The translations under genes and the position numbers were made by a program. From NCBI GenBank assembly GCA_964531375.1, contig CAZHDO010000005.1:1-48549 (forward strand): a stretch of 48,549 nt of DNA. The letters are read 5' to 3'. The DNA is from an uncultured Candidatus Saccharibacteria bacterium (GTDB lineage: Bacteria > Patescibacteriota > Minisyncoccia > Phycocordibacterales > UBA12445). Below the pieces are notes generated by a model that did not search any database, was not told where the DNA came from, and was given only the letters and a program-made list of their open reading frames with translations. Each line of letters opens with the position of its first letter. The stretch's first letter is position 1. Shown here one piece after another: positions 21,847 through 29,479 of this stretch.

Positions 21847-23256
<1,410 letters not shown>

Positions 23257-23333: not shown

Positions 23334-23373
23334 TTACTATAGTACTGAGACGATTGCGATACTACTATAGTAA
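23334..23373. promoter_or_regulatory. 40-bp palindromic site (left), overlapping promoter TTGCGA-17-TATAAT
   Basis: Two ACTATAGT boxes 20 nt apart; 34/40 identical to the reverse complement of 23997-24036. Confidence 0.8.
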
Positions 23374-23388
23374 GCGTATAATATTACC

Positions 23389-23991
23389 ATGATCAATGCT
23401 TCGGAAATAATTTTAAAAATACTAAAAGAAAGCGCGCAGGTGACTTTAGAATTATCAGAGATGATGATACATTCTCGTAGCGAGTCATATCGGCTGTTTA
23501 GAGAAAGCTTGCATGGTAACTCGAAAGGGGAGAAAAAAGGTGGTGTAAAACCTATAAGCAAACAGAATTTTTACAACTTGTTAAATTATTTAAAAAGGGA
23601 AGGTTTTGTTCACAAAGATAATAAGGATAATGATTCTGTTTGGAGTATTACGGATTTGGGTATTAAAAAATTGGAGAGAATTAGGCTTAGAGCTCTGAAC
23701 TCTAAAAATAATATAAATTATAAAGTAGAAAAAACAGACAAAAGTATTATCGTGGCTTTTGATATACCAGAAAAATACGGGAAACATCGAGCATGGCTTA
23801 GAGAAGTTCTTGGTTATTTAGATTTTAATATGGCACAAAAAAGTTTATGGATTGGCACTTCTAAAATACCAGAAGAATTTATTTTTGATCTAAAAAATAG
23901 GGGATTAGTGGACCATGTTGATATTTTTGAATTAGGCGCAAAGGGCACCTTACAGCGAATGAATCTAAAAGAGGGAGCAACTGCGAAATAA
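23389..23991 (+). CDS. PaaX-like protein: winged HTH plus Cas2/VapD-like ferredoxin domain
   Basis: FYNLLNYLKREGFV..WSIT..G wHTH; IVAFDIPE..RAWLR..L..LDF..QKSLW. Confidence 0.82.
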   Translation: MINASEIILKILKESAQVTLELSEMMIHSRSESYRLFRESLHGNSKGEKKGGVKPISKQNFYNLLNYLKREGFVHKDNKDNDSVWSITDLGIKKLERIRLRALNSKNNINYKVEKTDKSIIVAFDIPEKYGKHRAWLREVLGYLDFNMAQKSLWIGTSKIPEEFIFDLKNRGLVDHVDIFELGAKGTLQRMNLKEGATAK

Positions 23992-23996
23992 CATAT

Positions 23997-24036
23997 TCAC
24001 TATAGTATTATCGCAATCGTCATAATACTATAGTGA
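23997..24036. repeat. 40-bp palindromic site (right), inverted relative to the left site
   Basis: TCACTATAGT-ATTATCGCAATCGTCATAAT-ACTATAGTGA. Confidence 0.8.
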
Positions 24037-24107: not shown

Positions 24108-27100
24108 ATGTCTAAATTTAATGAAGATTTTGGTGTTCCGTTCCATAAACAGACTACTAGCGACAAGATGAATAAAATGGCTAAATTAGACGAAAGAGAC
24201 ATCGTTGACAATTCTGAATATTTGGAGAAGATTAAAAAGACTCAACAGGAAGTTGATAAGTTGATTGCAGAGAAGAAGTTGAAAGAAGAAAGAGAGGCTC
24301 AAGATAAATTAAAAAGCGAAATTTTGAATATTTTTGATAAAAGTGGAGAAGGGGTAAGGGGGGCTAACATTCTTAATCGTGATGGAACATTGAAGGAGCG
24401 TGTCCAAGATGAACTAAGGCAAATAAATGCAATTACTAAACCGCAAGATTCTAGCGGTGGAATTTTTAATGAGGATGGGAAATTAAAAGAAGAAGTGGGG
24501 GGTAAATTAGGCGACAGAGAAAAAAGGTCGGAGGAGGATTTGATCCAGTTAATAAATGAGGAGTCGTTTGATAGTGCCGAAGAAAAATATGGGAATTATG
24601 ATGTTTCTGAAAAAGTGATTGAGGTGTTAAAGAATAAATTATCAGAGATTGTAAAGGAGGAAGGTTTTTCTGGTGTTGTAAATGATCAAGGTAGGTTTGC
24701 GAAATTAACGGAAATTGTTGAGGGGAAATTTAAAACAAAATTGGGATTAAGTAAGTCCTATATTCAAGAAACTTTGATTGTTTTTCTTGAAAACTCAAGG
24801 GAAAGAGATTTGAATTATCTAAAGAGACAAACTGATAAATTGGCTCTTAAATACGATTTGGATAAAGAGCAAATATCGGAAGTTGTGCAAAACTTATTAG
24901 CGAAGAGGATAGCCAATTCCTATGAAGCACACGCTCTTGATGATTATGGTATAACGACAAAACAAGCAAAAGAGGCAGAAAAAAATTTCGACTTGTCAAA
25001 AAAAGAAGTCGAGTCTATTGATAAAAAAGCATTTGAAAATATATTTTATGAAAACAACCTGAAATATCTCGATTGGGAGAAGTTAGGGAAATTTAAAAAA
25101 GAGTATAATATTGGAGATGAATTTGTAGACAAACTGCTTAAAGAACATTTAGGCGAGGTTATAAAGAAATACAGCGGATATTTTTTTAGTCCAGCGAATC
25201 TCGCTAATTTTACGAAGGGTCTTAAATCTATAACCAATGACCCAGTGTTGATCGATAACGCAGTAGAAGAAATAAAATTAAATATTTTTATACATAAGAT
25301 TGACATTGGGTATCCTTACGTCTTAGAAGACGGCGACTTAGAAGGACTCCCGGAAAATCTTAAATTTATTCCCGAAGTGCAGGATAAAATCAAAAATTAT
25401 GTGCAAAATATAACGTTTGATAAATTTACTCCGGCAGTTGAAAACTTAATAATGTTAAACGAAGAAGAGATTGTTCCGATAATCGATAAGAGGATTGATG
25501 AAGTTTTTCTTAAAATAAAGGAAGAAAAAGATGAGTTTAGGGCACATAAATTTAAATCCTTTTTTAGAATTATCAATCACTATGGAAAAGAGAAGGCGTT
25601 ATCTTTTGCTCAAAGATTGACGTTGGGGGCTAATTTTTCTTCCGCACGTGAATTTATTCAAAATGTCAGCGCGGAAGGAGAACTTTCTGAATGGACGGAA
25701 TCGTTTAAGAATAACACCGACGTCCAAAGTGCCCTTTTGTCTAAAGTTGAGGAGGTAATGGGAGCTAGCTGGTCAGAAGAATTTATTTTGAAATGGGGTG
25801 ATTTTATGAGTGCCGAGTCGTTGAAAGAATCTTTTGGTCACTTGGCAAATAAAAACATCTCCGCGTCTATTTTATTTTGTCATAAACTTCTTGCTGTTAA
25901 CAATTTCGGTGAGATACTGAGAATGATTAAATTAGATGAAGATGAATCCAAGAATGAAGCGAAACAGAAGACCATAATAAATTTAATTATCGCAGTAAAC
26001 CCAGTGTTAAAAGAGTTATTTACTAATCCGACAAAGCTCGGGAAGGCCACTAATCTGATTACGAACAAAATTGTTCAGTTTATAGGTAAAATAGAGGATC
26101 GTGATGACTTAGCGATGATCTTGTCTGGGAAGATGCTTGAAATATCCAGGGTTTTTCAGAGTTCAGATAGTAGTGTAATAGACAAAAGAAGTTTATTTTT
26201 AGAATTATATGATCCCGATATCGATTCCAAAGACAAACAATTTTTAGGAGAAATACAGTCTCTTTCTATTGACAACGGGATATCAAAAACTGAGGCATAT
26301 AAAAAAATAGTTTTAAAGGACGAGGAAGGGCTTTTGATCGAATCCGGTAGTCATAGCATGATGGTGTATTTTGAGAAGCTACTTTCTCGAGAACAGGATG
26401 AGAACAAAAAAGCGGATCTTGAAAGTAAAATAAATAGGATTAGGGGAAATATTAAAAAAGCAGATAAAAGGAATAGACAGCTTTTTACTAAAATAAATGA
26501 TAAAAATATTTCCCAAGAAGAAAAAGTCGAATTAATTGTGCCAAAAGAGACAAGTGTATCTCAAGTTGGACCCGAGAAGGTGACTTTGCCAATTCTTGAA
26601 GAAGCTGCTTTTTGTGATGCGCTTTTGGGGGAATTAGGTGCTAAACAGGAAAATAATCTTGGCTTGCATATATCAGCTACTAAATATTATGATAAAATTG
26701 GAATGACATTGTTAAGCCGACTGCCATCTTATGATAATCTTCACGGCGCTCTAGTAAATAGGGTTTATGGAGACATTTCTGGGTACCCTCATAAATACTA
26801 TGGTCCAAGTGGTAGTGAAGATGATGCTTTTAGTATGGGACCGGCTCATAAATGTATTATCCTGGGGTTACCAAGCACAATGATTTCAAGTATCGTTGTT
26901 AAAGATGAAGTTGATGTGTTCGAACAAAAAAAAGCTGTTGCTATGAATGGTTTTTATATTCCAATTGTAAGAGAAAGCGACACAGAGATTTTATTTACCC
27001 CTGATGAATTTGATGAAATGAAGGTTTTTTATGGTTCTTTACACAGACAAGGCTATCCTTCAGAAGTTATCGATAGTGTGTATAAATATTATCTAGAGCA

Positions 27101-28607
27101 AAAAAATAGCGGAGAGGTCACGAAACATAAAATCGTAATTGAAAAAGGCTTCGATTTTGTTAGAGAACAATTGAATTCAGGATTGGAACAGGAAAAGACT
27201 TTTGATCTTGCGGTCTTGGTTGATTTCTTAAAAAAGAACGATTTAAATAAAAAGGATATTGGATGGTATCAGACGTCTTCGTTTGGGGAAGTAATGGAAC
27301 AGATAAGGGGAGATACCGCAAGTAAAAATAGGTGGAAAGCTAGGGATGCCTTGTTTATATATCCAGAAGGTTTTGATAAAAAACCAAAAAGTATTTCTGA
27401 AAACATAGAAACAATAAAAAGTATAGAGAGAAAGCCACATGGTTTTATTGACGCATTTGAAGGCCAACTTGAATATATTACACCGCCCCAAACACTATAT
27501 TTTGAAAATTTGGAATATCAGAAGAATATTAGAAACCTTATGTTTAGGGAAGGTATTAATACAGATGAAATAAACAAACCGAGCATCCGTATTGGTAATA
27601 TTGAGAATTCTGCAAAGTATTTCACAGAAAAAAGAGTAGTGCTTATGAGGTTTGTGTGGAATGAGTGTTTTAATAAGGTGGGTGATAAAATTAGTGATAA
27701 AAAACAATTGTCATTATATCGAGAATTACTAATACCCATAATAACTGGAAGTTTAGGTAGATCTGAGACTGTTCTTGGTTCGGATTTGGACTACAATATT
27801 CTTCTTGATGATGAAAAAATTCCTGCGGATATCGACAAGGATAAGTTTATGCAAGAGATAAAAGAATTTGTAAATAATGTTCTTTCTCCTGAGATGGGCG
27901 AATTAATTAAAGAGAAAAAGTTGAGACCTGATGCGGGATTGGGTAAAGAGGATAGAAAACCTTTTAGTATTGTGAGTAGAATTAAAGAATTTGATATTGA
28001 GTTATCAAAAAAGAGACAAGAAGAGGAGCCAACTGAAATAATAACGATGGAGCCGCTATTTACAAACGGGGAAGAAATAGTTAAAAAGGCGAAAAATTAT
28101 CTTTTTGAAAATAAGTCGGCCTATCTTTTGTCGTCGTTTGTTGAGAGAGATCTTCAGATTGGAACCAAGGAAAAGAATTCTTTTATAGCTGATTTTGAAG
28201 AATTATATTCTTCGGTTGCAAGCGGTAATATTATCAAAAAAATTAAAGAATCAATGCAGAGGACTTTGGTTTTTAAAATGAACCAGCTTTTGTTTCAGGC
28301 AATAGAAGACGGGAAAATTGCAAAAGCTGAAGTTGACAGTATTCCCTCTGCTGTTGTTGAATTAATAAGATATTTAGGTTCAAGGGGTATTTTATCTGAA
28401 AAAGAAACGACAACCTGCGAGGGTCTATGGGCCGTTTCTTATAAATTGAGGTTTTTGGGAGAGGTTTATTCTGACGGTGGGGCAAATACAGAAAAAGTTG
28501 TTAAAGTCAAAAATGTAGAATATAAAATCGAAGATCTTTCGTATGATGATAGAACAGTGGTTTTTCAGCTTCTGAAGGACTTCAGAGAGCAAGTTTTATA
28601 TAAATAG
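24108..28607 (+). CDS. 1499-aa protein with C-terminal GlnD/DUF294-like nucleotidyltransferase domain
   Basis: Long uninterrupted ORF; GSLGRSE..SDLD pol-beta-superfamily motif at ~27747-27792; helical N-terminal two-thirds. Confidence 0.75.
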   Translation: MSKFNEDFGVPFHKQTTSDKMNKMAKLDERDIVDNSEYLEKIKKTQQEVDKLIAEKKLKEEREAQDKLKSEILNIFDKSGEGVRGANILNRDGTLKERVQDELRQINAITKPQDSSGGIFNEDGKLKEEVGGKLGDREKRSEEDLIQLINEESFDSAEEKYGNYDVSEKVIEVLKNKLSEIVKEEGFSGVVNDQGRFAKLTEIVEGKFKTKLGLSKSYIQETLIVFLENSRERDLNYLKRQTDKLALKYDLDKEQISEVVQNLLAKRIANSYEAHALDDYGITTKQAKEAEKNFDLSKKEVESIDKKAFENIFYENNLKYLDWEKLGKFKKEYNIGDEFVDKLLKEHLGEVIKKYSGYFFSPANLANFTKGLKSITNDPVLIDNAVEEIKLNIFIHKIDIGYPYVLEDGDLEGLPENLKFIPEVQDKIKNYVQNITFDKFTPAVENLIMLNEEEIVPIIDKRIDEVFLKIKEEKDEFRAHKFKSFFRIINHYGKEKALSFAQRLTLGANFSSAREFIQNVSAEGELSEWTESFKNNTDVQSALLSKVEEVMGASWSEEFILKWGDFMSAESLKESFGHLANKNISASILFCHKLLAVNNFGEILRMIKLDEDESKNEAKQKTIINLIIAVNPVLKELFTNPTKLGKATNLITNKIVQFIGKIEDRDDLAMILSGKMLEISRVFQSSDSSVIDKRSLFLELYDPDIDSKDKQFLGEIQSLSIDNGISKTEAYKKIVLKDEEGLLIESGSHSMMVYFEKLLSREQDENKKADLESKINRIRGNIKKADKRNRQLFTKINDKNISQEEKVELIVPKETSVSQVGPEKVTLPILEEAAFCDALLGELGAKQENNLGLHISATKYYDKIGMTLLSRLPSYDNLHGALVNRVYGDISGYPHKYYGPSGSEDDAFSMGPAHKCIILGLPSTMISSIVVKDEVDVFEQKKAVAMNGFYIPIVRESDTEILFTPDEFDEMKVFYGSLHRQGYPSEVIDSVYKYYLEQKNSGEVTKHKIVIEKGFDFVREQLNSGLEQEKTFDLAVLVDFLKKNDLNKKDIGWYQTSSFGEVMEQIRGDTASKNRWKARDALFIYPEGFDKKPKSISENIETIKSIERKPHGFIDAFEGQLEYITPPQTLYFENLEYQKNIRNLMFREGINTDEINKPSIRIGNIENSAKYFTEKRVVLMRFVWNECFNKVGDKISDKKQLSLYRELLIPIITGSLGRSETVLGSDLDYNILLDDEKIPADIDKDKFMQEIKEFVNNVLSPEMGELIKEKKLRPDAGLGKEDRKPFSIVSRIKEFDIELSKKRQEEEPTEIITMEPLFTNGEEIVKKAKNYLFENKSAYLLSSFVERDLQIGTKEKNSFIADFEELYSSVASGNIIKKIKESMQRTLVFKMNQLLFQAIEDGKIAKAEVDSIPSAVVELIRYLGSRGILSEKETTTCEGLWAVSYKLRFLGEVYSDGGANTEKVVKVKNVEYKIEDLSYDDRTVVFQLLKDFREQVLYK

Positions 28608-28609
28608 TT

Positions 28610-29479
28610 TTATTTTTCCCACCTTCCAAAAACTCCTTGAGGTAATATTCTTTCGCTTCCTTTTTCTTGGAGGCCGATTTCGGATGATTCGATTTTTCCG
28701 CTGAGATTACCGAAGGCGCTAATTAAGATATTTTTAACTGTTGTTGGAGACATTCCTGTTGAGTAGGAGTTAACGAGGAAAAATAGGGGATTGTTGGTGA
28801 GGATCATTTTGCATTTCTCGATAAGGGGCCAGAGGTCTTGTTCTATTTTCCAGACTTCACCTTTTGCACCTCGTCCAAATGATGGTGGGTCCATTATTAT
28901 TGCGTCGTATTTTGTGCCTCTTTTGGCTTCTCTTTCGACGAATTTTACTGCATCGTCAACAATCCATCTGACTTTATCTCCAAAGCTATTTATCTCGGCA
29001 TTTTCTTTTGCCCAGCCGACAATTCCTTTTGAGGAATCAACGTGGCAAACTTTTGCGCCGGCATATGTTGCCGCAACAGTAGCTCCGCCGGTATAAGCAA
29101 AAAGATTTAAGACGTTAATTTCTCTTTTCGACTCTTTTATTTTATTGATCATCCAGTCCCAGTTCACGGCTTGCTCAGGGAATAGGCCTGTGTGTTTAAA
29201 TTGTGTTGGTTTAATTATGAATTTAAGGTTGGAATATTTTACCTCCCACCTGTCTGGCATTTGGTTTCTTACTGACCATTTTCCGCCACCTTCTTCACTC
29301 CTTAGATAATGGGCATCTGCGTCACTCCATTCTTTCTTTGAGAGCTTTTTGGGCCAAATAGCCAGCGGGTCAGGACGAGATAGGATAAAGCTGTTTGTGG
29401 AAGAACCCCAGCGTTCAAGCTTCTCCCCGTCGCCAGAATCTAATAATTCATAATCTTTCCAATTGTTTGCTGTTTGCAT
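28610..29479 (-). CDS. class I SAM-dependent methyltransferase (RlmI/RlmK-like)
   Basis: YELLDSG.GEKLERWG, HTGLFPEQ, VLNLFAYTGG, IIMDPPSFGRG. Confidence 0.9.
   Translation of the reverse strand: MQTANNWKDYELLDSGDGEKLERWGSSTNSFILSRPDPLAIWPKKLSKKEWSDADAHYLRSEEGGGKWSVRNQMPDRWEVKYSNLKFIIKPTQFKHTGLFPEQAVNWDWMINKIKESKREINVLNLFAYTGGATVAATYAGAKVCHVDSSKGIVGWAKENAEINSFGDKVRWIVDDAVKFVEREAKRGTKYDAIIMDPPSFGRGAKGEVWKIEQDLWPLIEKCKMILTNNPLFFLVNSYSTGMSPTTVKNILISAFGNLSGKIESSEIGLQEKGSERILPQGVFGRWEK

Follow-up and report, generated by a model that had tools for sequence, protein, structure and literature searches.

A winged helix-Cas2-like gene of Patescibacteria between paired palindromes that its product is predicted to read

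In the window analysed here, a stretch of 48,549 nucleotides from the genome of an ultra-small bacterium (Patescibacteria; 859-kb genome, 93.6% complete), a single gene is closely bracketed by two matching palindromes (Table 1), and paired sites of this kind are found across its family. Residues of the Cas2-like domain of the protein co-vary with the bases at the centre of these palindromes, which makes it likely that the protein occupies the two sites, acts as its own repressor and delimits a slowly moving one-gene cassette (site, gene, site), not an invertible switch. Our preferred reading, which we place just short of an even chance, is a domesticated selfish cassette: its protein would pair the two ends and now and then seed new copies of the site. 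We rank this reading ahead of a pure looping regulator.

Table 1. Features of the query locus, in positions of the window
Feature	Position	Strand	Remarks
tgt	21856..23256	+	conserved left border of the variable slot, outside the cassette
Upstream site (inferred operator)	23334..23373	+	quasi-palindrome, dyad between 23353 and 23354
Outer boxes ACTATAGT of the upstream site	23336-23343 and 23364-23371	+	
Core CGATTG of the upstream site	23351-23356	+	
Predicted sigma-70 promoter	23354..23382	+	-35 TTGCGA 23354-23359, inside the site; -10 TATAAT 23377-23382
200-aa gene	23389..23991	+	N-terminal winged helix and C-terminal PaaX_M/Cas2-like domain
Winged-helix domain, residues 1-103	23389..23697	+	PadR/MarR-like (Z about 12 to PadR/MarR, model)
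Cas2-like domain, residues 114-190	23728..23958	+	predicted reader of the central 10 bp
D125	23761-23763	+	Cas2-like domain
Helix 128-143	23770-23817	+	predicted; carries E128, G131, R134, A135, R138
K151	23839-23841	+	Cas2-like domain
Downstream site	23997..24036	-	inverted relative to the upstream site; dyad between 24016 and 24017
1499-aa gene	24108-28607	+	
SAM-methyltransferase-like gene	28610..29479	-	convergent; conserved right border of the slot, outside the cassette; label from motif reading

The query locus

An earlier note on this DNA had described the two sites as inverted copies identical at 34 of 40 positions, each with two ACTATAGT boxes 20 nt apart, the upstream one ending 15 nt before the ATG and the downstream one starting 5 nt after the stop codon, and all of this was confirmed. 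The 20-nt core is not truly asymmetric, as had been proposed: each site is one quasi-palindrome around CGATTG, a one-base variant of the family word CGATCG, with self-complementarity at 28/40 positions upstream and 34/40 downstream, where a perfect pair of 15-bp arms is present. The sites are no abundant repeat unrelated to the gene, a possibility that had been raised, as only two copies exist in the genome, both flanking the gene, and the next-best match to either reaches 26/40. When one rule was applied to the whole genome, matching palindromes at both ends were found for one ORF in 653 (ATG start, at least 140 aa), the query gene itself.

The query genome (G000) carries other small families of repeated long palindromes, unrelated to the cassette site (C5:176, C6:39788 and C11:22244; C1:52092, C12:17023 and C2:82491; C2:92767 and C5:14967). 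GATC is under-represented in it (1677 observed vs 2461 expected) and CGATCG is as frequent as expected (37 vs 37). Between the right site and the methyltransferase-like gene lies the 1499-aa gene, which is absent from the closest full locus (L114). No Pfam family matches it over cut-off, a weak DUF294 nucleotidyltransferase-like stretch is seen at residues 1211-1259, and its first 400 aa were not found in 10 genomes of the family.

Paired sites across the family

The earlier note had made its proposal depend on homologs having such sites too, and most of them do. A matching pair of 34-40-bp palindromes is present at 112 of the 135 non-redundant loci with both flanks, at 128/154 when more loci were included under a core-based rule, and at 59/77 held-out loci searched with a finder that requires no core (80 further loci, minus three without both flanks). 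The core is near-invariant: upstream it reads CGATCG in 78/112 loci and mostly CGGTCG, CGACCG or CGGCCG in the rest, and most sites are centred on CGRYCG. Around it, the spacer at ±5-10 is loose (partner sites 63-81% identical) and the outer boxes at ±11-17 are gene-specific (partner sites 86-96% identical). The two loci closest to the query, L114 and L207, likewise have CGATTG in each of their sites, and the sites are inverted in all three.

Where asymmetry allows the orientation of a pair to be told, it is direct in 15 and inverted in 8 of the 112 loci, and direct in 10 and inverted in 9 of the 59 held-out ones; this free orientation, 25 direct and 17 inverted in sum, argues against recombination or inversion. 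A sense-strand G-U bias is absent (72 G-T vs 74 A-C upstream, 57 vs 69 downstream), the downstream site has no trailing T-run, and no Rfam model matches near threshold. The symmetric conserved core and the free orientation, with neither G-U bias nor T-run, thus indicate neither crossover cores nor RNA hairpins, and the sites look like duplex binding sites. Downstream sites are slightly more perfect than upstream ones, and symmetrisation of the inner arms is commoner within single sites than from one site to the other (81 vs 43 and 35). No helical phasing is seen in the distance between the two sites, but for a loop of ~670 bp this tells nothing either way.

In two comparisons (L171 vs L135, L081 vs L082), other short palindromic repeats have been inserted between the stop codon and the downstream site, which is shifted by ~90 nt and retained. 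Two loci (L043, L109) have runs of N exactly where the downstream site is expected, so that perfect palindromes may be under-counted in assemblies.

Co-variation of residues and bases

Of central interest are the protein positions that vary together with the site. We scanned 128 loci for mutual information between protein columns and distance from the dyad, and the top cells were residue 131 against bp 4 (Z 22), 135 against 5, 151 against 1 (Z 17) and 63 against 13, the residues 131, 135 and 151 falling in the Cas2-like domain. At residue 151, K or R goes with T at ±1, Q with C, and N or D mostly with the mixed core CGGTCG (43/60 sites). At residue 131, R goes with T at ±4, K with C, and Q, S or E with G, while D or E at residue 135 goes with a purine at ±5. 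Residue 128 follows ±2, counted in half-sites: E with C in 640/696, H or T with G in 14/16, and K or I with T in 10/12. The invariant R134 has its counterpart in a near-invariant G at bp ±3 (728/740 half-sites). Residues 128, 131, 134/135 and 138 are spaced as one face of the predicted helix 128-143, and the model places residue 151 in a turn between two strands. The query departs from this code in one half-site, where E128 is found with TTG.

The rules were fixed on the first set and then tested, ties being dropped, on 57 held-out loci (the 59 with pairs, minus the off-centre picks L274 and L279), whose median best identity to the first set is 46%. For residue 131, K was found with C in 19/19 cases, against 8/25 for R with C (p 1.6e-6); for residue 151, Q went with C in 8/8 and K/R with T in 24/24 (p 1e-7); and for residue 135 a purine accompanied D/E in 28/32, against 5/12 (p 0.004). 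We also counted independent pairs on the well-supported branches (26/125 in the first set) of a FastTree phylogeny built without the tested columns. The predicted direction prevailed by 11 to 0 for residue 151 (p 0.001), 9.8 to 0.1 for residue 131 (p 0.002) and 7.9 to 0.2 for residue 135 (p 0.008), and for residue 128 against bp 2 by only 4.2 to 0 of 6 (p 0.125). Three mismatched control comparisons by the same method were not significant.

The winged-helix cells (63 against 13, 67 against 11) were not replicated in the held-out loci (p = 1), so that the reading of the outer boxes, for which helix 58-70 is the weakly indicated candidate, rests on fold, spacing and the precedent of PaaX. The co-variation that was replicated is that of Cas2-like-domain residues with core bases. 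It lends support to the proposal that the protein recognises its own flanking sites. This residue-base code is new here. A Cas2-like surface appears to read bases in this family, and the co-variation leads to a concrete prediction open to test, namely sequence-specific reading of DNA bases by a Cas2 fold. It also gives a first map of the contacts between a PaaX-type protein and its operator, a complex called unsolved in a review (PMC9493321).

The predicted promoter and probable self-repression

As previously proposed, the left site overlaps the predicted promoter of the gene itself, and its core supplies a -35 (TTGCGA, 17 nt from TATAAT), of which CGATTG contributes the TTG. In a set of 185 loci, enrichment of -10-like hexamers is confined to the upstream site and to the sense direction. 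The -10 most often ends 6 nt before the start (36 hits), and 6/185 loci have an SD-like motif. The -10 of the query ends 6 nt before the ATG, fitting the family peak exactly, and its mRNA is likely leaderless. Of 110 loci, 53 have a convergent downstream neighbour and 49 a co-oriented one, and in 8 none was found within 450 nt; with orientations so mixed, the right site is in no position to govern the gene beyond it and belongs to the gene of the cassette. Very probably, a dimer of the protein occupies both sites and acts as repressor of its own promoter, which is predicted to be leaderless.

The protein and its distribution

PaaX_M (PF20803) is the sole Pfam family over cut-off for the query protein (E 5.5e-9) and is matched by 96/96 family members, none of which match the N- and C-terminal PaaX families PF07848 and PF08223 (0/96 each). 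The Cas2 families score below cut-off for the query (TIGR01573, 14.6 vs 24.5; PF09827, 14.7 vs 23.8), and a weak PF09827 match is present in 78/96 members. A fold model from a 96-row alignment (pLDDT 86), which replaced an earlier one from 13 rows (pLDDT 68), finds its best Foldseek match in E. coli PaaX (8a39, E 7e-4). The protein ends ~10 residues past the Cas2-like domain. Prediction of a four-copy complex gave a score of 0.00, which bears neither way.

The Asp of the AFDIPE motif, to which the earlier note had drawn attention, is indeed present (D125). Because conservation of F-D-I-P-E was biased in the first set by the peptide pattern used to collect it, we re-tested it in the 77 held-out loci found by HMM: D125, R134 and S152 are invariant (77/77) and Q150 is nearly so (75/77). 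D125, S152 and Q150 match the Cas2/VapD motif, a conserved acidic residue following strand 1 and a QxS, on an alignment to Cas2 6jhz. We found neither an HUH motif (no His column at 40% or above in 231 rows) nor a catalytic-Tyr motif (one Tyr column at 41% of the 231 rows). The statement that Cas1 and CRISPR arrays are absent likewise held in the 93.6%-complete genome, arrays being sought with a crude repeat scan.

Relatives are present in 114/301 genomes of the order, with 1-10 matches per genome, PF20803 occurs in 55/201 genomes of the phylum, and the family comprises 859 clusters at E<=1e-30, its named records being almost all from Patescibacteria. None were found in the viral contigs or phage records searched, and the plasmid matches are two at 24% identity in one Streptantibioticus strain, which are probably true PaaX. 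To profile searches these genes resemble Cas2, and one relative is named Cas2 by its source; PADLOC matches in the family are almost all to Cas2 models, with none for the query. A strongly hydrophobic N-terminal helix (mean hydropathy at least 1.8 over 19 residues), possibly a membrane anchor or an oligomerisation helix, is found in 39/77 held-out proteins (L235-L314, a second subfamily) and in 18/154 of the first set, the query being without it.

History of the cassette and solo copies

The earlier note had also envisaged a mobile or invertible single-gene unit. The conserved extent of site, one gene and site bears out the unit; the invertible part, with its recombination-site architecture, is not supported in view of the symmetric conserved core, the free orientation and the absence of a target-site duplication (29/185 loci vs 13.9% in shuffled sequence). 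The variable slot between tgt and the methyltransferase-like gene holds the cassette in L114 too (56% identity), pointing the same way as seen from tgt and with the same outer boxes. In three congeners the slot holds three unrelated genes and no site, and one genome (G001) carries a 49% relative elsewhere.

Among pairs of loci, 40/40 at 90% protein identity or above share their flanks, these pairs being highly redundant; one relocation event was found at 70-90% identity; and 42/73 pairs at 55-70% share neither flank, as far as the sensitivity of blastn allows flank-sharing to be seen at that distance. In the relocated pair (L166/L171, 73% identity) the alignment stops at the outer edges of the sites. 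dN/dS is 0.11-0.17 in six pairs, four further pairs being saturated. The cassette is long-resident, under purifying selection, and relocates rarely.

The 80 neighbour slots that we inspected contain mostly unrelated housekeeping genes, with no fixed partner and no paa genes. A gene for a Xer-like tyrosine recombinase adjoins the cassette in five of them (L127, L050, L067, L042, L131), all of one clade, which is probably ancestral synteny. The earlier note had proposed to look for empty sites; empty slots in congeners lack the site. At a second slot, in genus g9, the cassette is present in 0/24 resolved congener loci (L335 is not among these) and 23/24 have no site, the ambiguous one (L338) carrying a hairpin with a CGATAG centre followed by a T-run. 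At a third slot, 6/7 are empty and without site, and one genome (G332) has a solo site, identical at 31/34 positions to the downstream site of a cassette elsewhere in that genome. In about half of the congeners the genus g9 slot (L323-L348) is occupied by single genes that differ from one another; they have promoter-like sequence of their own and, in several cases, a terminator-like hairpin as well, and this slot is a general one-gene insertion hot spot.

Remote solo copies cognate to the resident cassette were found in G100 (4), G113 (2), G201 (1) and G332; precise copies are thus present in 4/6 genomes checked, with none in G173 or in the query genome. They are intergenic, 100-500 nt before unrelated genes. 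Seven of eight match the cognate site at 32-36 of 36 positions (a comparison made without the G100 downstream-site rows), with flanks mostly at chance level, and paralogs in one genome carry different sites. Agreement of the solo copies extends to the inner spacer, loosely constrained as it is, and this is suggestive of copying. Assembled contigs covering the query cassette, which may be the source of this DNA, have no joint at either site, though rare inversions could escape such contigs. In G100, two solo sites with near-identical flanks of ~140 nt lie inverted around a 9-kb housekeeping block (L315, G100:C1 near 306765 and 315825), possibly as an inversion scar.

Comparison with known systems

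PaaX, a phenylacetyl-CoA-responsive repressor, likewise has a winged helix followed by a Cas2-like domain (E. coli W 8a39; Jannaschia 3l09; PF07848 + PF20803 + PF08223). Its operator is TGATTC(N27)GAATCA, a 39-bp inverted repeat, and PaaX represses its own promoter (PMC9493321). The family operator is similar in span and different in sequence, and where PaaX is described with an N27 centre, the family sites have a conserved core that is read, according to the co-variation. The family protein lacks the C-terminal ligand domain PF08223, its gene has no linkage to paa genes in the 80 slots, and a second site after the stop codon sets it apart from PaaX.

With CRISPR Cas2 and VapD, the family shares a motif class (invariant Asp and QxS) and, in most members, the weak PF09827 match. 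It differs from CRISPR Cas2 in the fused winged helix, in its score below the TIGR01573 cut-off and in having neither cas1 nor array in the query genome. In the Cas1-Cas2 complex, the Cas2 dimer lies under the middle of the duplex and contacts the backbone via N10, R14, R16, R77 and R78 (PMC6395717), whereas the residues highlighted here co-vary with bases.

REP/RAYT systems have a short gene between its own palindromes, paralog-specific repeats, dispersed cognate repeats and no near-identical gene copies (PMC3337134). The cassette resembles them in its own flanking repeats, its paralog-specific sites, the lack of near-identical gene copies and, in four of the six genomes checked, its dispersed cognate copies. 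However, the family is without HUH/Y motifs, has a single symmetric duplex site on each side in place of multiple REPIN doublets and 0-4 remote copies in the genomes checked, and its site overlaps a promoter. Of the marks of an insertion sequence or invertible element, we found neither a fixed orientation of the ends nor a target-site duplication nor near-identical copies at different loci. In phage lambda, the cI gene has operators on both sides (OL and OR), is autoregulated, and has a leaderless PRM mRNA. The cassette is alike in its two-sided operators, its inferred autoregulation and its predicted leaderless mRNA, but has no regulated operon or phage context, and its fold differs. The cassette combines the proposed working of a PaaX-type repressor with a layout like that of a RAYT gene and its REPs, but fails membership of PaaX, Cas2, RAYT and IS alike. 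In the open-access literature covered by our search, as far as its texts were accessible, no description of the module was found.

A proposed mechanism and its alternatives

In the domesticated selfish cassette that we favour, the protein would likely bind both bracketing palindromes as a symmetric dimer on double-stranded DNA. The dyad would be occupied by the Cas2-like dimer, its helix 128-143 lying in the major groove, while the pair of winged helices would extend to the gene-specific outer boxes (±11-17), a span like that of the 39-bp PaaX operator. With the left site bound, the -35 would be covered and expression would stay low, and the cassette would likely behave as a slowly moving element of REP/RAYT type. 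Two steps are the least certain: the right site may be kept since the protein pairs both ends, and the invariant D125/S152 centre may contribute, at a low rate, to the copying or movement of the site or of the entire cassette. Against a mobile cassette stand the absence of any recent move among pairs at 90% identity or above, of transposase motifs, of a target-site duplication, of solo copies in the query genome and G173, and of relatives in the viral contigs and phage records searched.

A bolder version, which we consider unlikely, holds that these are phylum-wide Cas2-fold mobile elements, in which the dimer reads a 36-bp site by a simple residue-base code and the conserved Cas2 Asp cuts at the dyad and seeds copies of the site and, rarely, of the cassette. 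If it were true, they would be an analogue of REP/RAYT built on Cas2 instead of an HUH transposase and a candidate for a pre-CRISPR role of Cas2, and they would supply orthogonal, recodable pairs of repressor and operator by the hundreds; should the protein indeed copy its own site, this would be a new kind of self-spreading repeat system.

The strongest alternative, somewhat unlikely in our view, is a pure transcription regulator whose right site is an auxiliary looping operator or a roadblock, whose solo sites form a small regulon and which moves passively by transformation. PaaX ancestry speaks for it, PaaX being a repressor of its own promoter (PMC9493321), as do long residence under purifying selection, slots that accept unrelated single genes as well, and the lack of both transposase chemistry motifs and a target-site duplication. 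However, the only targets in the query genome flank the gene itself, which leaves nothing else to regulate; the solo sites stand 100-500 nt before unrelated genes and agree in the inner spacer in a manner suggesting copying; paralogs within one genome have different sites; and a repressor does not obviously need the invariant Asp.

That Asp, with S152 and Q150 in a Cas2/VapD-type motif, could alternatively belong to a latent nuclease, held in check by tight self-repression or by tethering to the sites and freed by an attack on the host DNA or by loss of the cassette, in the manner of abortive defence or addiction. Its patchy, multi-copy distribution and its retention under purifying selection would agree with this. 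We nevertheless find it improbable: the neighbours are mostly housekeeping rather than defence genes, PADLOC recovers almost only Cas2 models and nothing for the query, the basic residues beside D125 are explained by base reading, and the solo copies are left unexplained.

It is very improbable that the sites act as hairpins, whether as RNA terminators or stabilisers or as single-stranded DNA ends as in IS200/IS605 and REP. The greater perfection of downstream sites and the symmetrising of inner arms within sites would fit; against this, G-U bias, T-run and any near-threshold Rfam match are lacking, and positions ±1 and ±2, the would-be loop tip, show symmetry and co-vary with residues of the protein. 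Least probable of all is an invertible or site-specific recombination unit with an asymmetric crossover core, which could invoke the inverted sites with a common CGATTG asymmetry in the query, L114 and L207 and the Xer-like gene beside 5/80 slots, but which is opposed by empty slots without a target site, by a core that is symmetric and conserved throughout the family, by the free orientation of the sites (25 direct vs 17 inverted), and by a direction relative to tgt that has stayed the same at 56% identity.
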